This document shows, piece after piece, positions 14,141 to 44,642 of a stretch of 61,616 bases of DNA; within the stretch, counting starts at the first letter, position 1, and each line of letters starts with the position of its first letter. The DNA is from Bacilli bacterium (GTDB lineage Bacteria; Bacillota_I; Bacilli_A; RF39; UBA660). The position numbers and the translations under genes are program-made. The notes under the pieces were generated by a model. It was given only the letters and a program-made list of their open reading frames with translations. It ran no database searches and was not told where the DNA came from. The stretch is taken from assembly GCA_016283075.1 (NCBI GenBank), contig JAEEMF010000069.1, forward strand, positions 1 through 61,616. The letters are read 5' to 3'.

Positions 14141-14169
14141 TTGATTAATTATATTATTTATAATAATAT
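14141..14169 (+). promoter_or_regulatory. promoter of candidate antitoxin sRNA copy 1 (TTGATT-17-TAATAT)
   Basis: -35 at 14141-14146, 17-nt spacer, -10 at 14164-14169. Confidence 0.5.
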
Positions 14170-14175
14170 AAATAT

Positions 14176-14244
14176 AGGAATACCTAATTTTCGCATGTTA
14201 GGTGTTACCGTGTGGTAGACCTAACTAACTAGTTAGGTTTTTTT
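14176..14244 (+). ncRNA. candidate antisense small RNA 1 (~69 nt), putative type I antitoxin
   Basis: Start predicted from its own promoter. 5' hairpin ACCUAA...UUAGGU. Terminator CCTAAC-TAACTA-GTTAGG followed by T7 (14238-14244). Convergent with the peptide gene and complementary to the region downstream of it. Confidence 0.5.
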
Positions 14245-14245
14245 G

Positions 14246-14329
14246 TTATTTCATCATCATTATTATGATTGATAATAGGATGAAGATGATAACTACTAAA
14301 GAAGAGATTAAAAAATCTTTTTTAGTCAT
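14246..14329 (-). CDS. 27-aa hydrophobic peptide MTKKDFLISSLVVIIFILLSIIIMMMK, candidate type I toxin (copy 1)
   Basis: GGAGGTGG lies 4 nt upstream of the ATG. Single TM-like helix with N-terminal KK and C-terminal K. Copy 2 encodes an identical peptide with one synonymous change. Below the ORF-track size cutoff. Confidence 0.55.
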   Translation of the reverse strand: MTKKDFLISSLVVIIFILLSIIIMMMK

Positions 14330-14444
14330 AGTACCACCTCCCTTCGAAGATAACACCTAACATTTAGATACTCCTACATTAATATGATACGAGAAAACTT
14401 TCCCATATCCTTTTTTTATACTTAATTTTTTTATTATAGTTATC

Positions 14445-14472
14445 TTGACATATATAACTAATATGATATTAT
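14445..14472 (+). promoter_or_regulatory. promoter of candidate antitoxin sRNA copy 2 (TTGACA-16-TGaTATTAT)
   Basis: -35 at 14445-14450, extended TG at 14464-14465, -10 at 14467-14472. The predicted start maps to the same repeat position as in copy 1. Confidence 0.55.
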
Positions 14473-14478
14473 GAATAT

Positions 14479-14547
14479 AGGAATACCTAATTTTCGTAGG
14501 TTAGGTGTTACCGTTTGGGAACCCTAACTAACTAGTTAGGTTTTTTT
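14479..14547 (+). ncRNA. candidate antisense small RNA 2
   Basis: Same architecture as copy 1, with terminator T-run at 14541-14547. Confidence 0.5.
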
Positions 14548-14548
14548 G

Positions 14549-14632
14549 TTATTTCATCATCATTATTATGATTGATAATAGGATGAAGATGATAACTACT
14601 AAAGAAGAAATTAAAAAATCTTTTTTAGTCAT
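14549..14632 (-). CDS. 27-aa hydrophobic peptide, candidate type I toxin (copy 2)
   Basis: Same peptide and same GGAGGTGG RBS as copy 1. Confidence 0.55.
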   Translation of the reverse strand: MTKKDFLISSLVVIIFILLSIIIMMMK

Positions 14633-14774
14633 AGTACCACCTCCCTTCGAAGATAACACCTAACATTTAGATACTCCTACATTAATATGATACGGCAAAA
14701 CCTTCTCATATCCTTTTTTATTATAAATATTTTGAAATTATGGTAAAATGAAAGTGTTATTTGTAGGAGGATTT

Positions 14775-27472: not shown

Positions 27473-28435
27473 ATGAATAGATTTAGAATATCAAAACTAT
27501 TTATCTTTATTATGCTAGTACTTATATTTAGTATAAGTGCTGTTTTTGCATATTCCTATTTAGCAGGGGATGTAGGATTTACTCCTAAGGATAGTAACTG
27601 GGATGTAGATAATACAAAAGATGCTTTAGATGATTTAAAAGAGTCTATTGATAGGAGTTGTAATGATCTAATTAATAATGTATGGGTTTATCCTTACACT
27701 GGTGAAGAACAAATATTTTCAGCGCCTTGCAGAGGATATTATTTACTACAAGTGTGGGGCGCACAAGGTGGAAATGCGACTGCTACTTACATAGGCGGAT
27801 ATGGAGCCTATGCTGAAGGAAAGATAAAAGTTAACCAGGTTGAAAATCTATATGTAAATGTTGGCGGTGCTGGTGCTTCGCAATACACAACAGGAAAATA
27901 TCAAGAAGTTGCTGGTGGATATAACGGCGGAGGAACCGCATCTTGTAATAGTGATAAATATTGCAAGTATTATTATAATGGTTCCGGTGGTGGAGCTACT
28001 CATATATCGAAAGAAAGTGGTTTATTAAAAGATACTGTAAATACTACGAATATTATAATAGTTTCTGGTGGAGGAAATGGTGGTCATCATGACTCTGGTA
28101 CTCCTAGTTGGTCTTATGTTGGAGGAAGTGCAATTGGAATTGCTGAATCAGGCACATACTTTGGTTATGGTGGAAGTAATACTTCAATCGCTACTAATGC
28201 TGGTGGAGGTGGTGGTTACTATGGTGGAAACTATGGAACTGCAACTGCTGCAACTATTCCCGGCGGATCTTCTTATTTATCACCAGCTCTAACTGGTGGA
28301 AAAATATACTGCTATAATTGTACAGAGTCGGAGAATGTTTTTAATTCAGCAACTACTTCTCAAAATCCTGCTATTAATGTTGCAAAACAAGGTAATGGAT
28401 ATGCTAAAATAACATATCTTGGTAAATCTTTATAG
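27473..28435 (+). CDS. secreted glycine-rich repeat protein (family member 1)
   Basis: Signal peptide ending VFA|YSY. Conserved N-module YSYLAGDVGFTPKDSNWDVDNTKDALDDL. Motifs VWGAQGG, GGYGAY, YVNVGGAG, GGYNGGG, GGGATHI and GNGYAKITYLG. Confidence 0.8.
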   Translation: MNRFRISKLFIFIMLVLIFSISAVFAYSYLAGDVGFTPKDSNWDVDNTKDALDDLKESIDRSCNDLINNVWVYPYTGEEQIFSAPCRGYYLLQVWGAQGGNATATYIGGYGAYAEGKIKVNQVENLYVNVGGAGASQYTTGKYQEVAGGYNGGGTASCNSDKYCKYYYNGSGGGATHISKESGLLKDTVNTTNIIIVSGGGNGGHHDSGTPSWSYVGGSAIGIAESGTYFGYGGSNTSIATNAGGGGGYYGGNYGTATAATIPGGSSYLSPALTGGKIYCYNCTESENVFNSATTSQNPAINVAKQGNGYAKITYLGKSL

Positions 28436-31720: not shown

Positions 31721-32305
31721 ATGAAAAATATTTTTAAAAGAAAAATTCCTTATTTTATACTTGGAGTACTTGTAGCAATAACAAGTACTGTTTTTGCATA
31801 TAGTTATTTAGCTCCCGATGTTGGCTTTACTCCTACTGATACAACTTGGAGTGTTAGTAATGTTAAAAGTGCTTTAGATTCACTTAGAAATGAGCACATA
31901 TTCGAACATTTATCAAACAATTTTCTAAATGGAAGTATTTATGGAATATATAATAGTAGTAGTCTTGCCTTATATAGTGGTGCTTCTAGAGATGGAGATT
32001 ATATATCCCTTAATTCAAATAATGCGCTTTATTCTATACCAAATTTAAGCATTCCAGAGGGGTGTTATTTTATTATTGTAAACGGCCAAAATCTGACAAA
32101 TGCTTTTTCTCCTGATGTAGTAAATGCTTCTACATACAAAGCATATGCTCCCAAAATAGTTGAAAAGGGTAATAATTATGCATATTACTACATAAATGTT
32201 GGAGAAACCATGAGTACTGGAGAATTTAGAATTTGGAATAAATCTTCTAATGTTATAAAAATAAAAACTACAATGATTTTCAACGTTGAGACATGTCCTT
32301 ATTAA
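31721..32305 (+). CDS. secreted protein with the family N-module but a non-glycine-rich C-terminal domain
   Basis: Signal peptide ending VFA|YSY, then YSYLAPDVGFTPTDTTWSVSNVKSALDSL. The C-terminus is unrelated to the Gly-rich body. Confidence 0.75.
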   Translation: MKNIFKRKIPYFILGVLVAITSTVFAYSYLAPDVGFTPTDTTWSVSNVKSALDSLRNEHIFEHLSNNFLNGSIYGIYNSSSLALYSGASRDGDYISLNSNNALYSIPNLSIPEGCYFIIVNGQNLTNAFSPDVVNASTYKAYAPKIVEKGNNYAYYYINVGETMSTGEFRIWNKSSNVIKIKTTMIFNVETCPY

Positions 32306-37615: not shown

Positions 37616-38473
37616 ATGAAGAAAGTAAGAAAATTAGTTATACCAGTTGCTGGTATGGGAACACGTTTTTTACCAGTAACAAAAAGTGTACCTAAAGAAA
37701 TGCTCCCAATAGTAGATATTCCTACAATTCAGTTACAACTTGAAGAAGCAAAAAATGCAGGAATAGAAGAAGTATTATTTATAACAAGTGGTACTAAAAA
37801 TAGTATAGTAAGTCATTTTGATATTGATTATGAACTTGAAGATAAGTTAGAAAAATCAGGAAAAACAAAACAACTTGAAATGGTAAGAAAATTACCTAAA
37901 ATGATGAAAGTATATTCTATTAGACAAGGGCAACCTCTAGGTAGTGGTCATGCTGTAGGACTAGCAAAAGAGTGGGTAGGAGACGAACCATTTGCAGTAA
38001 TGTACGGTGATGATCTTATTAAAGGTGGATGTGCTTTAAAAGAATTAATAGAAGTATATGAAAAATATGATGCTAACGTTGTAGGTGTACAAGAAGTACC
38101 ACATGAAATGACATATAAATATGGTATTGTATCTTTAAAAGATAAAGATACTTTAGAAATGTCTGGTTTAGTAGAAAAACCAAAAGTAGAAGATGCACCT
38201 AGTGATTTAGCAGGACTAGGAAGATACATCTTAAAACCAGAAATCTTTAATGAGTTAGAAAACCTTAAAGCAGGTAAAAATGGGGAATACCAACTTACTG
38301 ATGCAATGGGAAATCTAATGAAGAAAGATAAGTTCTATGCTTGTAAATTTAAAGGCACATATTATGATATTGGAAATCAACTAGGATATATCAAAGCTAA
38401 TATTATGTATGCTTTAGATAGAGAAGAATATAAAGATGAATTAATAGAATTTATGAAAGGGATAGAGAAATAA
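37616..38473 (+). CDS. galU: UTP--glucose-1-phosphate uridylyltransferase
   Basis: PVAGMGTRFLPVTKSVPKEMLP signature. The ORF-track start (TTG 37571) lies inside the upstream small ORF. Confidence 0.9.
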   Translation: MKKVRKLVIPVAGMGTRFLPVTKSVPKEMLPIVDIPTIQLQLEEAKNAGIEEVLFITSGTKNSIVSHFDIDYELEDKLEKSGKTKQLEMVRKLPKMMKVYSIRQGQPLGSGHAVGLAKEWVGDEPFAVMYGDDLIKGGCALKELIEVYEKYDANVVGVQEVPHEMTYKYGIVSLKDKDTLEMSGLVEKPKVEDAPSDLAGLGRYILKPEIFNELENLKAGKNGEYQLTDAMGNLMKKDKFYACKFKGTYYDIGNQLGYIKANIMYALDREEYKDELIEFMKGIEK

Positions 38474-38499
38474 CTCTATCTTTTTATAAAAGGTGAAAT

Positions 38500-38763
38500 A
38501 TGAATATAGAAGATGATTTTAGTTTAGAAGAATCTGAAAAAAGATTTTTAAAAAAACAAAGTAATGGAATGCTTCTTTCTGAAAATCATATTAATATTTT
38601 AAATAAATATGATATAGATTATTTAAAATGTTCTAGTATTAATGATTTACTTTATCAAATAGATGAAGTTTTAAATGAAGGCGAATATGATGAAGTTGAT
38701 GACCTAGAATGGGTATCTATTGATTTAGCAGAAAGAAACTATTATCAAAATACAAACAAATAG
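38500..38763 (+). CDS. small acidic hypothetical protein
   Basis: AAGGTGA RBS; no recognisable motif. Confidence 0.55.
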   Translation: MNIEDDFSLEESEKRFLKKQSNGMLLSENHINILNKYDIDYLKCSSINDLLYQIDEVLNEGEYDEVDDLEWVSIDLAERNYYQNTNK

Positions 38764-38798
38764 CGGATTAATAATCCTCTTTTTTGCTTGTACTTTGA

Positions 38799-38827
38799 TT
38801 GACCAAAATTGCAGTTTAAACTATAAT
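38799..38827 (+). promoter_or_regulatory. promoter TTGACC-17-TATAAT of the glycine-rich operon
   Basis: -35 at 38799-38804 and -10 at 38822-38827. Confidence 0.6.
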
Positions 38828-38852
38828 AATGATATAAGGTAGGAGTATGTAC

Positions 38853-39908
38853 ATGAAGAAAATATTAAAGTCTAGATTAGTATGTTATTTTCTTGGAATC
38901 CTTACAATGATAGGTGTAGGAAGTGTTTTTGCATACTCTTATATAGCAGGTGAAATAGGTTTTACACCCACTTCTGGAGACTGGGATGTTGAAAATGTTC
39001 AGGAAGCTCTTGATAACTTCCGTGATATAGCAGGAACATGTATTTTTACATGCCCTTATGCACCTGGTTCTACAGTATATGAATCAGGTACATCTGGAAT
39101 AAGTGTTAAATTTGTACCACTATGTAATGGTACTTATCAGTTTGAAGTATGGGGAGCTTCTGGTGGATATGGTTATTCATCTACTTATAGAGGTGGATAC
39201 GGAGCATATGCTAGAGGTGTTGCAACACTTCAAGCAAATGATCCAATATATATTACTATAGGTGGAGTAGGAAAAAATGGTACTTCTAAAACTGCAGATT
39301 ATGCAGGAGGATATAATGGTGGTGGTAATTCTTATCACTGGGGTAATAATAATACCTATAGTGCATCAGGTGGAGGTGGAGGATATTACTTTACTACAAC
39401 TGAAAATGCAGTTGGTGGTTCTGGAGGAGGAATCTCCGGAGTAAATGGTAATGTAAACCCATCCGCTCAGTATAGACGAGGACTTGGTGGAACACAAACA
39501 GCTGCCGGTAGCTTCGATGGTACTGGTCGTAGAGAAGCTAATGCTGGTGGTTTTGGTTATGGTGGAGACTCGAGTGCAACTGTTTCTGGATCTGGTGGAG
39601 GATCTGGTGGAGGAGCAGGATTCTTTGGTGGTGGAGGTTCTTCCGTAGCCGGAGCCGGAGGAGGTTCTAGTTATATTGCAAGTTCACTTCTTATTCCTAA
39701 CAATAGTAATCAAATAAGAAATGTAATGTACTGCTATCAATGTACTGAAAGTAGTAATTTATATACCTATACTGTATCAACTTATGGTACTACAACTCAT
39801 GAAGGCGAAAGAAATTCAGAATGTTCAAGTGGATATAGTACATCACCACTTAGTGGATGTGCTAAATCAGGTAGTGGATACGCCATTATAAAATATATAG
39901 GAGAATAG
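38853..39908 (+). CDS. secreted glycine-rich repeat protein (family member 2)
   Basis: VFA|YSY signal and N-module. Motifs VWGASGG, GGYGAY, ITIGGVG, GGYNGGG, MYCYQCTES, VSTYGTTTHE and GSGYAIIKYIG. ATG 38853 lies 7 nt after AGGAG. Confidence 0.8.
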   Translation: MKKILKSRLVCYFLGILTMIGVGSVFAYSYIAGEIGFTPTSGDWDVENVQEALDNFRDIAGTCIFTCPYAPGSTVYESGTSGISVKFVPLCNGTYQFEVWGASGGYGYSSTYRGGYGAYARGVATLQANDPIYITIGGVGKNGTSKTADYAGGYNGGGNSYHWGNNNTYSASGGGGGYYFTTTENAVGGSGGGISGVNGNVNPSAQYRRGLGGTQTAAGSFDGTGRREANAGGFGYGGDSSATVSGSGGGSGGGAGFFGGGGSSVAGAGGGSSYIASSLLIPNNSNQIRNVMYCYQCTESSNLYTYTVSTYGTTTHEGERNSECSSGYSTSPLSGCAKSGSGYAIIKYIGE

Positions 39909-39919
39909 AAAGGATACGT

Positions 39920-41070
39920 ATGAAAACACACTTAAAGAATTTATTTTTTATAGTGATTGGATTAATCTTGGGGATATCTCTAAGTGTTTTGCATACTCTT
40001 ATTTAGCAGAACAAATAGGATTTACTCCTTCGGCAGAAGACTGGGATGTAGATAATGTTCAAGATGCTTTAGATAGTTTTAGAGATATAGCAAGCCATTG
40101 TCCTTTTGGTTGTGAATATGTTGTAGGAGAACCTGCAATTGAATTACAATATAGAGGTGTAGAGGATGTCGTTAATATAAAATGTCCTGGAAAATTCAAA
40201 ATAGAAGTATGGGGAGCTTCTGGGAATATTGTAGACGCTACTTATGCACATTCCGGTTATGGAGGTTATTCCGTCGGAATTATGTCTTTTAATGAAGGAG
40301 ATACTTTATATATAAATGTTGGTGGAACCGGCGCTTCTTCAACATATGGTTCTGCATCAGGTGGATATAATGGTGGAGGAAGCGGAAAGGATTATAGAGA
40401 TGGAAGAGGAACCGGAGGTGGCGGAGGTGCTACACATATTGCTAAAGTAACTGGTGAACTTAGATATCTTGAATCATTCAAGGGAGAATTAAATAATGCA
40501 TCTGGAACTTATATATCTGACAAGATAATAATTGTCGCTGGGGGTGGTGGCGGAGTTGGTAATTTTACAGGACTTCATACAGCAAATCTTGTTGCGGGTT
40601 CCGGTGGTGGAAGTGTTGGTGTTACAGGAGTTAGTCCAGGAACTGGTAAAACTTACTATGGAACAGGTGGAACACAATTAGCTGCAGGAACTGCTGAAAG
40701 AACAGATTCAGTATACCAGGGGACAGACGGGAGTTTTGGATTTGGTGGAGATTGCACTGGAGCTGCCGAAGGAAACTGTTCTGGAGGAGGCGGAGGATTT
40801 TTTGGAGGAGGCTCCAATTCAAATTACTCTGGAGCAGCCGGTGGTGGCTCTGGTTATATAGGAAACATTTCTTTAAGTGAAAAAGCGATGTACTGTTATA
40901 ATTGCACTGAAAGTGATACTGCTGATTCATATACTGTTTCAACTTATGGAACAACAACTCATGAAAATGAAAGAAATCCGTTATGTGTAAATGGCTATTC
41001 GTTTGATCCTATTAGTAAATGCGCTAAAGCAGGAAACGGATATGTTAGAATAACTTATTTAGGAAGTTAA
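39920..41070 (+). pseudogene. glycine-rich family member 3, frameshifted in a T-run at 39987-39990
   Basis: The N-terminal 23 codons are nearly identical in DNA to the 41085 gene, which has TTTTT where this copy has TTTT. The frame then stops at 40004-40006. The +1-shifted frame continues open (FAYSYLAEQIGFTP...) into ORF 40282-41070. Confidence 0.75.
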
Positions 41071-41084
41071 TAGAAAGGGTAAGT

Positions 41085-42170
41085 ATGAAAAAACACTTAA
41101 AGAATATATCTTTTATAGTGATTGGATTAATCTTGGGGATATCTCTAAGTGTTTTTGCATATTCAGTATTTGCTGAAGAGGTTGGATATACTCCTGTTGA
41201 TACTGAGTGGAATGTAGAAAATTCTAAAGAAGCAATAGATGATTTACATGGAACATGTGATTATTGCAAGAATCGTTTCTTAGGAATTACGTGGGATTTT
41301 ACTTTTGAAGGAAAAGAAAGACAATTTAATGTTCCTTTAAAAGGAATATATAAATTAGAAGCATGGGGAGCACAAGGTGGAAGCTATGATACTACTATTT
41401 ATGGTGGATATGGTGGATATTCAGTTGGTGAAATACTTCTAAATGAAAATGATACTCTTTATATAAATGTTGGTGGGAAAGGTTCGACTACATATCATAA
41501 TGAAACAATTCTAAACGGTGGTTATAATGGTGGTGGGTCTGCTAAATCAATCGGTGATGCTGATGTATATGTTGGTTCAGGTGGCGGAGCTACACACATA
41601 GCCAAGGCATCAGGTTTACTATCAACTTTAGTGACAAATCAAAGCGATATTTTGATAGTTGCAGGTGGTGGCGGAGGAGCTAACAAGTTTGTCTCGGATT
41701 ATTATGGTCATGGTGGAAATGGAGGAGGAGTCTCTGGTGAAAAGCCTACTTTAACTAATGTATCTGGCTATACTTATCCAATTGGCACAGCTAATGGAGG
41801 AACCCAAAATGCTGGTGGTAGTTACATGACTACTTGTTCTGGAAGTGCCTGTTATAATACACAAGCCGGTAGTTTTGGCCAAGGTGGCAATGCCATTAAT
41901 GTAAGAACATCAGGTGGAGGCGGAGGCTACTATGGAGGCTCTAGTGGAGCAAGATCTGGTGGAGCAGGTGGTTCTGGATATATAGCAGCCCTTAATCAAA
42001 AATCAATTGATATTGATGAAAAACATATGACTTGTTATAAATGTACAACTTCTAATAATGCAATAGATCGAACAAGAACAACTGATAATGTATCAGAAGA
42101 TGCTGAGAGCGATTATGCAAAAATGGGGAATGGTTACGCTAAGATAACTTTAGTAATGGTAAGCCAGTAA
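41085..42170 (+). CDS. secreted glycine-rich repeat protein (family member 4)
   Basis: Signal peptide ending VFA|YSV and an N-module. Motifs AWGAQGG, GGYGGY, YINVGGKG, GGYNGGG, GGGATHI and GNGYAKITL. Confidence 0.8.
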   Translation: MKKHLKNISFIVIGLILGISLSVFAYSVFAEEVGYTPVDTEWNVENSKEAIDDLHGTCDYCKNRFLGITWDFTFEGKERQFNVPLKGIYKLEAWGAQGGSYDTTIYGGYGGYSVGEILLNENDTLYINVGGKGSTTYHNETILNGGYNGGGSAKSIGDADVYVGSGGGATHIAKASGLLSTLVTNQSDILIVAGGGGGANKFVSDYYGHGGNGGGVSGEKPTLTNVSGYTYPIGTANGGTQNAGGSYMTTCSGSACYNTQAGSFGQGGNAINVRTSGGGGGYYGGSSGARSGGAGGSGYIAALNQKSIDIDEKHMTCYKCTTSNNAIDRTRTTDNVSEDAESDYAKMGNGYAKITLVMVSQ

Positions 42171-42226
42171 ACTTTTTATAAAGTAATATACTTATGAAAA
42201 GTAGTTTTAAATATTATATAAAATGA

Positions 42227-42253
42227 AGGAGAAAAAAACTTTTTCTCCTTTTT
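42227..42253 (+). terminator. rho-independent terminator
   Basis: AGGAGAAAA / TTTTCTCCT stem followed by a T-run. Confidence 0.7.
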
Positions 42254-42311
42254 AGTATGGAAAAAAAGTTACTTTTAAGATATACTAATATATAGTAGGA
42301 GGGTAGGCTAT

Positions 42312-44642
42312 ATGAGTATTAGTAAAAAAGAAATTAAAAAGATGGATGCATATTTTAGAGCACTTAATTATTTGTCAGTAGCACAACTATATTTACTAGA
42401 TAATCCACTTCTTAGAAGAAAACTAGAAATATCCGATATTAAACCTAATGTTGTAGGACACTGGGGTACTGCTCCTGGACAAAACTTTATTTATATGCAT
42501 TTAAATAGAATTATAAAAGAATATGATTTAAATATGATATATGTATCTGGACCTGGACATGGTGGACAGGCTATGGTAGCAAATAATTATTTAGAAGGAG
42601 TATATTCTAAGTTTTATCCAGAAATAACTGAGGATGAAGCTGGACTTAGAAAACTATGTAAACAATTTAGTTTTCCTGGTGGAATATCTTCTCACGTTGC
42701 ACCAGAAACTCCTGGTTCTATTCATGAAGGTGGAGAACTAGGTTATAGCTTAGCTCATGCTGCAGGAGCTGCACTTGATAATAAAGATTTAATTGTAGCT
42801 TGTGTAGTAGGTGATGGAGAAGCTGAAACTGGACCACTTGCAACATCTTGGAATATAAATAAATTCTTAAATAAGAAAAAAGATGGAACTGTACTTCCTA
42901 TTCTTCATAGAAATGGATATAAAATAGCGAATCCAACTGTATTTGGAAGAATGAGTGAAACTGAGCTTATTGCATTCTTTAATGGATATGGATGGAAACC
43001 ATATTTTGTTACTGAATCAGATACTATGAAAGCTCATGAAAAAATGGCTAGAGTACTTGATAATGTAGTAAGTGATATCTTTAAAATTAAGAAAACTGGT
43101 AAAGGTATGTATCCAGTGGTAATCTTAACTACTCCTAAAGGATGGACTGGTCCAAAATTTGTAAATGGTAAGAAAATGGAAGGTACTTTTAGAGCACATC
43201 AAGTACCAATTACTATTTCTAAAAATGATATGAGTAATTTAGAAGTAATTGAAAGATGGCTTAGAAGTTATCATCCAGAAGAACTATTTGATGAAAAGGG
43301 TAGACTTAATAAAGAATTAAAAGAATTATGTCCTACTTTATCAAAATGTATGGGATATAATAAAATTGCTAATGGAGGATTACTTCTTAAAGAGTTAAAG
43401 ACTCCTGACTGGGAAGACTACTGTATTAATATAAATAAACCTGGTGAAATTATAGACCAAGATACTATGGAACTAGGTAATTATATAAGAGATTTATTTG
43501 TATTAAATAAAGATAATAAAAACTTTAGAATATTTGGACCTGATGAAGCTTTATCTAATAGATTTAATCATATATTTGAAAAAGAAAGTAGAACTTGGAA
43601 TTATAAAACACTTAAAACAGATGAGTTCTTATCTGAAGATGGTAGAGTAATGGATTCTTATCTATCAGAACACTTATGTGAAGGTATGCTAGAAGGATAC
43701 TTACTAACTGGTAGACACGGATTTATTCATAGTTATGAAGCATTTGTAAGAATAATAGATTCTATGGCAAGTCAACATGCTAAATGGTTAAAGGTATGTA
43801 ATTCAATATCTTGGAGAGCTCCAATAGCATCACTTAACTTCATGCTAGTATCACATGTATTCCAACAAGATCATAATGGATATACACATCAAGATCCTGG
43901 ATTCTTAAATCATTTAGTTACTAAAAAAGCTGATGTAGTAAGAATGTATTTACCTCCAGATACTAACTGTTTACTTTCATGTTTTGATCACTGTATCAAA
44001 TCTAAAAACTATATTAATGTTATAGTAGCAAGTAAACATCCAAGACCACAGTGGCTTACTAAAGAGCAAGCTAGAAAACACTGTGCTAAAGGAGCAGGTG
44101 TTTGGGAATTTGCTAGTAATGATAAAGATGGTGTAGATGTAGTAATGGCGTGCTGCGGAGAAACTCCAACTTTAGAAACTTTAGCAGCCGTAGAACTTTT
44201 AAGAGCAAATATTCCTGGAATTAGAATTAGAGTTGTTAATGTAGTAGACTTAATGAAACTTGAACCAAATTATGTTCATCCACATGGAATGAGTGATGAT
44301 GAATATGATAAGTTATTTACTACTGATAAACCTATTATCTTTAACTTCCATGGATATCCTTCTTTAATACATCAATTAACATATAAACGTACTAACCGTA
44401 ACTTACATGTTCACGGTTATAAAGAAGAAGGAACTATTACTACAACATTTGATATAAGAGTACAAAATGAAATAGATAGATTTAGCTTAGTAAAAGCTGT
44501 TATTAAAGAAATACCTGAATATAAAGAAAAATATTCTAATATAATTAATTGGTGTGATGATATGTTAAGTTATCATAAAGCCTATATCCATGAATATGGA
44601 GAGGACATGCCAATAGTTAAAAACTGGAAATGGCAAGGATAA
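42312..44642 (+). CDS. xfp: xylulose-5-phosphate/fructose-6-phosphate phosphoketolase
   Basis: HWGTAPG, EGGELGYS and GDGEAETGP motifs; ~776 aa. Confidence 0.92.
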   Translation: MSISKKEIKKMDAYFRALNYLSVAQLYLLDNPLLRRKLEISDIKPNVVGHWGTAPGQNFIYMHLNRIIKEYDLNMIYVSGPGHGGQAMVANNYLEGVYSKFYPEITEDEAGLRKLCKQFSFPGGISSHVAPETPGSIHEGGELGYSLAHAAGAALDNKDLIVACVVGDGEAETGPLATSWNINKFLNKKKDGTVLPILHRNGYKIANPTVFGRMSETELIAFFNGYGWKPYFVTESDTMKAHEKMARVLDNVVSDIFKIKKTGKGMYPVVILTTPKGWTGPKFVNGKKMEGTFRAHQVPITISKNDMSNLEVIERWLRSYHPEELFDEKGRLNKELKELCPTLSKCMGYNKIANGGLLLKELKTPDWEDYCININKPGEIIDQDTMELGNYIRDLFVLNKDNKNFRIFGPDEALSNRFNHIFEKESRTWNYKTLKTDEFLSEDGRVMDSYLSEHLCEGMLEGYLLTGRHGFIHSYEAFVRIIDSMASQHAKWLKVCNSISWRAPIASLNFMLVSHVFQQDHNGYTHQDPGFLNHLVTKKADVVRMYLPPDTNCLLSCFDHCIKSKNYINVIVASKHPRPQWLTKEQARKHCAKGAGVWEFASNDKDGVDVVMACCGETPTLETLAAVELLRANIPGIRIRVVNVVDLMKLEPNYVHPHGMSDDEYDKLFTTDKPIIFNFHGYPSLIHQLTYKRTNRNLHVHGYKEEGTITTTFDIRVQNEIDRFSLVKAVIKEIPEYKEKYSNIINWCDDMLSYHKAYIHEYGEDMPIVKNWKWQG

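Follow-up and report, generated by a model that had tools for sequence, protein, structure and literature searches.

Exported proteins with an ALK/LTK-type glycine-rich domain and a shared, portable N-terminal module in a small-genome member of the Bacilli: a candidate adhesin repertoire

Four genes for glycine-rich secreted proteins are present on a contig of 61,616 nucleotides (nt) from a Bacilli bacterium of the lineage Bacillota_I, Bacilli_A, RF39, UBA660 (NCBI GenBank assembly GCA_016283075.1, contig JAEEMF010000069.1, positions 1 to 61,616 of the forward strand; hereafter the window). The window is contig C4 of an assembly of 85 contigs and 1.19 Mb, with 27% GC and an estimated completeness of 78%. 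Three of the genes form one unit (genes 1 to 3) and the fourth is solitary. They probably belong to a repertoire of Sec-exported, lectin-like receptor-binding proteins, i.e., adhesins, for glycans or surface structures. A repertoire of this kind is indicated by a leader and N-terminal module (N-module) which is shared by ~39 genes of the genome and carries, besides the glycine-rich domain (GRD), heads of the phage tail-collar, F5/8-type-C and carbohydrate-binding module (CBM)-like types. Extracellular delivery is indicated by the (-3,-1) pattern of the leader and by the occurrence of the GRD elsewhere on prepilins, leucine-rich repeat (LRR) proteins, TasA/SipW-like proteins, giant adhesins and lipobox proteins. 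The signal peptide would most likely be cut by type I signal peptidase (SPase I) after the invariant Ala of VFA|YS, and the N-module would then act as a common stalk or attachment handle. In the head, the glycine blocks form a conserved scaffold, and segments of variable length would give each paralog its own specificity. Binding would occur through the variable loops of the GRD, on the model of phage fibres and ALK, to glycans or surface structures of the host, the diet or neighbouring microbes. The genes of the window that carry the leader and N-module are the following (aa, amino acids):

27473-28435, + strand: gene 4, 320 aa; leader and N-module 27473-27640, GRD 27731-28420 (E 3.8e-27), short CYNC tail
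31721-32305, + strand: fifth leader/N-module gene, 194 aa; leader profile E 1.9e-30, no GRD, no Pfam match
38853-39908, + strand: gene 1, 351 aa; leader and N-module 38853-39026, PF12810 GRD 39114-39899 (E 3.4e-24)
39920-41070, + strand: gene 2, GRD pseudogene; leader frame 39920-40006, N-module and GRD frame 39979-41070
41085-42170, + strand: gene 3, 361 aa; leader and N-module 41085-41249, GRD 41340-42152 (E 2e-38), variant CYKC tail

All four GRD genes match PF12810, the Pfam family of the ALK/LTK GRD, with 86.6, 80.9, 133.2 and 96.3 bits (E 2e-38 to 3e-24; gathering score 24.5 bits). The matches cover model positions ~3-243 of 243, and a search at the DNA level agrees with them. A sequence profile built from gene 3 and 37 homologs retrieved ALK and its nematode homolog from the PDB with an E value of 1.5e-7. 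The AlphaFold2 (AF2) model of gene 3 has a mean predicted local distance difference test score (pLDDT) of 85.8, exceeding 90 over most of residues 70-360, and a predicted template-modelling score of 0.80; sandwich strands are predicted in it together with long Gly-rich stretches that are neither helix nor strand. In a Foldseek comparison of this model with the PDB, the best 21 matches were all ALK/LTK TG/GRD structures (probability 1.00, E down to 5e-8), followed by mycobacteriophage Bxb1 (tail tip) and cyanophage Pam3 (fibre). A viral model library yielded 115 Foldseek matches at E<=1e-3, with template-modelling (TM) scores up to 0.56, and PHROGs 1589, 7388 and 5811, all listed as function unknown, match GRD proteins. 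The head is predicted to combine a TNF-like beta-sandwich and an interleaved lattice of polyglycine-II helices in the 'TG' fold of ALK/LTK. The initial annotation had noted a resemblance of the glycine blocks to the Pfam glycine-rich and ALK/LTK families, which is borne out by the hidden Markov model (HMM) match, the PDB profile and the Foldseek ranking. Its mention of phage tail fibres finds its counterpart in Bxb1, Pam3, the viral models and the PHROGs, and its expectation of a polyglycine-II fold agrees with the confident gene 3 model, which retrieves ALK/LTK first.

The fold is known as the ligand- or receptor-binding part of both phage fibres and ALK. With the TG supradomain of ALK/LTK (PDB 7NX1, 7LRZ, 7N00, 7LIR) the window proteins have in common the Pfam family, above its gathering score, and the predicted fold; in the receptors the GRD is an extracellular ligand-binding module. 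ALK and LTK, however, also possess a kinase, a transmembrane segment and EGF-like, MAM and LDLa domains, none of which is present in the window proteins. No receptor architecture with EGF-like part, transmembrane segment and cytoplasmic kinase following the GRD was found in the window genes, whose chains end 3-8 residues past the last GRD strand, with no second Pfam domain. Unlike ALK, the bacterial proteins are stand-alone and 320-361 aa long; they begin with their own leader and N-module, and an insert containing CxxC precedes the last strand. The identity of the bacterial GRD to ALK is only 15-21%, and ALKAL cannot be the ligand.

In an alignment of the 11 short GRD paralogs of the genome, ~13 Gly-rich blocks are conserved (column conservation 0.62-0.96), including WGAQGG, GGYGGYS, LYINVGG, GGYNGGG, GGGATH, LIVAGGGGG, GGTQ, FGQG, GGGGGFYGGG and GGGSSYI. 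Between them lie indel-rich segments with a conservation of 0.19-0.35. The short paralogs are mutually 33-63% identical and are old. A conserved glycine stem alternating with variable loops was described for the phage fibre head (PMC9608196), and the paralog alignment shows the same alternation. Pam3 gp24 (PDB 7YPX/7YFW) and the Bxb1 tail tip (9D93) have, by Foldseek, the same TNF-like and glycine-rich head, Salmonella phage S16 gp38 (6F45) being a more distant fibre with it, and in phage fibres and window genes alike a short N-terminal attachment part precedes the head.

Heads of the GRD, Collar and discoidin types are characteristic of phage receptor-binding proteins, and the genes could in principle be parts or remnants of a prophage, a tailocin or a phage-like particle, i.e., true tail fibres. 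This origin is extremely improbable. Signal peptides of the Sec type, absent from virion proteins, are present throughout the family, and members are scattered on >20 contigs and in pure arrays. The inspected neighbours of the three-gene unit and of gene 4 are housekeeping genes, with no capsid, tail, terminase or integrase gene among them (the lack of phage genes nearby was noticed from the outset), and a prophage context was rejected accordingly. Furthermore, the three-gene operon includes no fibre chaperone gene of the gp25 type, and the N-terminal part is unrelated to the long trimerising helix of gp24.

The leader and N-module are described by the pattern MKK..h-region..VFA|YSYLA..VGFTP.D..W.V.N..ALD.L, with ~32 conserved mature residues followed by a Cys-containing linker. 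A profile of 57 columns, spanning leader and N-module, detected ~39 open reading frames (ORFs) in the genome, which amount to 30.4 kb or 2.6% of the DNA. Their heads comprise 11 GRD, ~10 phage tail-collar (PF07484) and 4-5 F5/8-type-C domains, one of the latter with fn3; the remaining genes have short heads with no Pfam match. One of these short heads, that of the gene at 31721-32305, was modelled as a beta-sandwich (AF2 pLDDT 83-90), and its top Foldseek matches are CBM35, CBM27, CBM6, CBM29 and CBM86 (E ~3e-4, TM up to 0.6). The leader/N-module is not a feature of the glycine-rich family but a portable unit of its own, on which tail-collar, discoidin and CBM-like heads are found as well. In a related metagenome-assembled genome (MAG), at least 15 consecutive N-module genes with gaps of 16-42 bp were found (L109:9280-21086; ENA ERZ27256836; IJ572_... 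proteins, NCBI 'Bacilli bacterium'); four of the heads are GRD, one is Flg_new and ten have no Pfam match, and the array extends past the end of the locus analysed.

When 1.84 billion cluster representatives were searched exhaustively by HMM, 1,623 N-module proteins were detected at E<=0.001, 488 of them at E<=1e-10; a word-indexed search with the N-module region alone, limited by its index, returned four proteins. The module is N-terminal, starting at or before residue 7, in all but one of the 150 matches listed, and the proteins are mostly 150-400 aa long. Among 132 representatives, the Pfam heads were GRD in 11, F5/8C in six, and Collar, Laminin_G_3 (LamG) and an H-type lectin in one each, the others having no Pfam domain. 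No annotation was present on the N-module proteins that were looked up, and Pfam and NCBIfam gave no match to the module itself; a single weak one was obtained in PHROG (phrog_12029, E 0.003).

The distribution of the N-module is phylogenetically sporadic and confined to few lineages. Against 39 copies in this genome, none is found in six species of the same genus, 24 and 13 are found in two other genera of the family, and in a sample of 150 further genomes from across the order the module occurs in only two. Where the amino acid is identical, paralogs use the same codon in a mean fraction of 0.68 in the leader and 0.52 in the rest, and some pairs reach 0.8-0.9 in the leader as against 0.4-0.6 elsewhere. 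Genes 2 and 3 are ~92% identical across their first 100 nt, including the ribosome-binding site. Both observations suggest that the leader is homogenised by recombination. Many family members lie on very short contigs, and one contig sequence (G000 C57:5446-5571) ends inside the leader, its 42 residues being identical to the start of the N-module gene at C60:611-1459. The repeated leader probably breaks the assembly, so that the copy number of the N-module is to be read as a lower bound.

A tblastn search against phages returned one borderline N-module match (E 0.02), in ORF248 of Vibrio phage nt-1 (L108:5812-7272). This fibre-like protein has two foldon-like motifs followed by YAATDVTFTATNSQLLSDNVHDALEELYEK, which shares 52% identity with the N-module consensus across 31 residues, and a head that matches phrog_16509 (function unknown) at residues 80-486, with only weak partial matches to tail-fibre PHROGs. 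A phage origin of the N-module motif is possible and is offered as a lead only.

The putative signal peptidase I site follows von Heijne's (-3,-1) rule, a pattern that a plain membrane anchor would not need. Among 125 N-module representatives, position -1, located 17 positions ahead of an invariant Trp, is Ala in 120 (96%), position -3 is V/A/I/T in 122 (98%), and Tyr occupies position +1 in 80%. Ahead of the site lies a basic n-region, then an uncharged span of 16-23 residues. By these features the window genes have leaders of the Sec/SPase I class, which would be cleaved.

Across the genome, 15 genes match PF12810; no match was found in 14 control genomes. The shared leader is found on eleven of the 15, all of them short forms; six of these make up one array on contig C28, in which an N-module gene with a short head and no Pfam match is also located (C28:54204-54722). 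Two others have the GRD on a type IV pilin N-terminus: C23:10012-12225, which gives an N_methyl match, and C28:61659-63281, which adjoins a second pilin-like gene and a T2SSE ATPase. Another two are fused to BspA-type LRR. PF12810 is present in 16 of 40 relatives; the six genomes of the same genus all carry it (1-9 copies), and 21 copies occur in one other genus.

In public data, the GRD is very common in uncultured gut and rumen Bacilli. The records are labelled, among others, Bacilli, Tenericutes, Firmicutes CAG:582 and Mycoplasma sp. CAG:776, with some Saccharibacteria. The partners of the GRD there include prepilin leaders, TasA/SipW-like leaders, cadherin-like, Flg_new and Ig-like domains, giant adhesins and lipobox leaders. 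All of these formats are extracellular.

Other lineages and leaders were also encountered. GRD proteins of 872-1022 aa are encoded in episymbiotic Saccharibacteria (L079 and L086; Saccharibacteria / Nanosyncoccus MAGs), and GRD proteins that are apparent lipoproteins, with an LTSC/LAGC lipobox, occur in L097, a MAG labelled Prevotellaceae (Bacteroidota). The presence of the domain in Saccharibacteria and in a Bacteroidota-labelled MAG suggests a wide horizontal spread in gut communities. In gut Bacilli MAGs (L034, L049, L051, L060, L061, L083, L099 and others), GRD proteins of 600-900 aa have a different shared leader, MKKTTILLI..LFMVIGYAAYNATVNIYG...ENLSDFKVYL, of TasA/SipW-like look, and are often encoded by 2-5 tandem genes.

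Not every copy of the family is intact. Gene 2 starts at 39920 and meets an in-frame TAG at 40004-40006, the remainder being open at 39979-41070 in another frame. The break lies in a run of four T residues at 39987-39990, where gene 3 and an intact ortholog (P0267, 383 aa, 76% identical) have five. The T4 run is also present in L106, which comes from another metagenome assembly and has three interior single-nucleotide polymorphisms relative to the window. The frameshift is therefore a real 1-nt change and not an assembly slip, and gene 2 is a pseudogene in at least two strains. A further sequence, L025, was rejected as independent support, as its interior is 100% identical to the window and it differs only at the contig ends. 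Phase variation at the T4/T5 run was judged unlikely, since the run is short and has the same state in both strains, although slippage at a low level may occur.

In a related species the intact gene 2 ortholog sits elsewhere (window 39656-41240 compared with L107:1544-2962), and it is followed there by an N-module gene, queA, miaA and RNase J. This difference in genomic neighbourhood shows that family members have been moved or lost independently.

Several points weigh against the reading of these proteins as surface adhesins. The Foldseek TM-scores to ALK are modest (0.36-0.46), and the broken gene 2 implies that at least one family member is dispensable. The N-module was modelled at low confidence (pLDDT 40-66), with only a short helix over ALDDL. 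No recognised wall anchor was found in the proteins, whether an LPXTG-type signal, SLH, LysM or a choline-binding domain. The genome encodes four Mur ligases and thus a peptidoglycan wall, so that a wall-less organism was rejected; with a wall and no known anchor, the cleaved product might simply be released. In addition, AF2 predicts residues 2-29 of gene 3 as one helix, and the hydrophobic segment together with YSYLA amounts to ~23 residues, which fits an uncleaved N-terminal membrane anchor.

The fourth of these points leads to freely released, soluble lectins, which would be cleaved and diffuse away, coating or cross-linking glycans in matrix formation, nutrient capture or ligand masking. 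Such lectins would be consistent with the (-3,-1) pattern, which fits cleavage, with the lectin- or CBM-like heads, with the lack of a wall-anchor motif in any of the 11 leader-bearing GRD sequences, and with a single sortase that has its own NPQTG substrates. They are nonetheless unlikely, since free release leaves unexplained a near-constant mature N-terminus of 32 residues across ~39 genes with unrelated heads, and since the GRD is otherwise always found on cell-attached formats (pilins, LRR adhesins, giant adhesins) in the genome and its relatives. The last point would instead make them type II membrane proteins, with an uncleaved hydrophobic anchor and the N-module as a juxtamembrane stalk for a head held at the membrane surface. 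The continuous AF2 helix favours this topology, as does an uncharged span of ~23 residues before an acidic residue is reached. An Ala at -1 that hardly varies and a small aliphatic residue at -3, however, are a requirement of SPase I and superfluous for an anchor, and a membrane-held protein of 350 aa would hardly cross a Gram-positive wall, for which the Mur ligases are present; a membrane-anchored family is thus quite unlikely.

A role as bacteriocin-like effectors, or as decoys against phages through masking or mimicry of receptors, was considered as well, because the proteins are secreted, paralogous and variable and a defence-type helicase-nuclease gene adjoins gene 27473. Both roles are very improbable. 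Neither a toxin, pore-forming or enzymatic domain nor an immunity gene pattern accompanies the heads, and direct support for a decoy was not obtained; like the phage-particle origin, they have little support.

Among readings of the N-module itself, one more specific proposal is that it represents a new class of export-and-attachment signal, the mature N-terminus of which docks swappable lectin-like heads (GRD, tail-collar, discoidin, CBM-like) on a shared surface scaffold or receptor. This is put forward tentatively and is unlikely to hold. If it did, the family would be the cellular counterpart of the swapping of phage heads on a constant baseplate-attachment domain, and gene conversion of the leader and reshuffling of arrays would let the bacterium vary its adhesion targets.

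For the adhesin repertoire as a whole, other surface systems provide points of comparison. Attachment by sortase was looked for at the C-termini of the window proteins, which read ...ITYLGx and have no LPXTG-type motif followed by hydrophobic and basic residues. The single sortase region (G000 C39:67106-70245) is preceded by the gene of an 805-aa protein ending in NPQTGD, a hydrophobic stretch and KKAKK; a second NPQTG protein is encoded at C16:15651-18512, and an N-module/fn3/discoidin gene comes after the sortase. A link between sortase and N-module was judged coincidental, since the sortase has these classical NPQTG substrates upstream and on C16.

The SipW-dependent fibre subunits TasA and CalY resemble the family in having a conserved N-terminus after the signal cleavage site. 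The genome has four signal peptidase genes of the archaeal/endoplasmic reticulum type, and other gut Bacilli GRD proteins carry TasA-like leaders and PF12389. A difference from TasA/CalY is that SipW-type peptidase counts show no correlation with the N-module in 41 genomes; archaeal-type signal peptidases occur in 30 of the 41 relatives regardless of it, and the link to SipW was rejected. TasA/camelysin (PF12389) and SipW-signal models in Pfam and NCBIfam did not match any window gene.

Type IV pilins show a similar logic. The PilX proteins of Saccharibacteria, for example, are minor or tip pilins of type IV in which the C-terminal domain is lectin-like (PMC11623550). Such pilins and the prepilin-GRD fusions, of which there are two in this genome (one by the T2SSE ATPase) and many in public data, likewise combine a conserved N-terminal assembly signal with a variable binding head. 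Unlike pilins, the window proteins have a leader of the Sec/SPase I type. The pilin N-terminus (PF07963 / TIGR02532, with the G|FTLxE motif and N_methyl) was not found in the window genes but is present in two other GRD genes of the genome, C23:10012-12225 and C28:61659-63281.

The Vsp, Vlp and Vsa proteins of Mycoplasma are variable surface families with a conserved 5' region and leader and a variable body. These Mollicutes families are comparable in forming large paralogous families in a small, low-GC genome, in their tandem arrays, and in a highly conserved leader with diverging bodies. The present family differs from them in having neither a lipobox nor tandem-repeat bodies, its heads being folded lectin-like domains; site-specific invertases and long homopolymer switches were not seen.

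The domain family as such is known, and the proteins would be annotated automatically as 'glycine rich domain-containing'; no study of a bacterial GRD (PF12810) member was found in the literature. What is new is that cells, and not phages, use the GRD head here, within a large modular family whose defining feature is an N-terminal module not described before. The glycine-rich TNF-like fold is familiar from a human cancer receptor and a few phage fibres, while thousands of bacterial homologs bear only the label 'glycine rich domain-containing protein'. Here, the GRD is one head among several in a modular repertoire, to which ~2.6% of a reduced genome is devoted. Uncultured gut Bacilli with small genomes probably depend on hosts or neighbours, and the repertoire points to a main way in which they recognise their surroundings. 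The unannotated N-module, with its 1,623 cluster representatives, may serve annotators as a handle for such binding proteins, and if it proves to be an attachment signal it would represent a new mechanism of surface display in Gram-positive bacteria. The heads are compact and disulfide-poor and could be screened for glycan specificity.

The three-gene unit is bounded by two further candidate elements:

38799-38827, + strand: promoter of sigma-70 type, TTGACC-17-TATAAT, 11 of 12 positions, by consensus match only
42226-42250, no strand assigned: terminator-like hairpin of 11 pairs, AAGGAGAAAAA-loop-TTTTTCTCCTT, followed by a T-run, closing the three-gene unit

By consensus scoring, the promoter is the best promoter-like site within 38400-42400. 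Gene 1 starts best at the ATG at 38853, which lies 7 nt downstream of a GGAG; the alternative ATG at 38847 follows it at a distance of only 1 nt. Genes 1 and 2 are separated by 11 bp, and genes 2 and 3 by 14 bp. Re-analysis of the sequence recovered the ORFs, gaps, promoter and terminator as they had been described in the initial annotation, as well as the frameshift in gene 2, and the gene at 27473-28435 was rightly named as a fourth member, having both the PF12810 match and the same leader/N-module. The features ascribed there to all four genes need some correction. All four do have the signal peptide, the N-module, the Cys-containing spacer and the glycine blocks, except that gene 1 lacks the GGGATHI...IVAGGGGG segment. 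A tail of the form MYCYxCTES...VSTYGTTTHE had been assigned to three genes, but its complete form is found only in genes 1 and 2 (in gene 1 as a complete CxxC...C...C); gene 27473 has the short CYNC form, and gene 41085 the CYKC form, a variant as originally stated.

Gene 4 is flanked by serS and a convergent helicase-nuclease gene. The neighbours of the three-gene unit and gene 4 include a gene of the UTP-glucose-1-phosphate uridylyltransferase type (galU-like) and genes for phosphoketolase, glycosyltransferases, PcrA/UvrD, MnmA, seryl-tRNA synthetase (SerRS) and the helicase-nuclease.

Elsewhere in the window, two tandem copies of an element of ~303 nt, 94% alike, are located at 14159-14733. 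The element gave no match in Rfam. Four full copies are present in the genome, and a copy with 90% identity in a related species lies directly 3' of an N-module gene. The minus strand has a ribosome-binding site and an ORF for a hydrophobic peptide of 27 aa (MTKKDFLISSLVVIIFILLSIIIMMMK), and on the plus strand a TATAAT box is found together with a short unit that ends in a terminator and converges on the 3' end of this ORF. From this arrangement, the element looks like a type I toxin-antitoxin locus.

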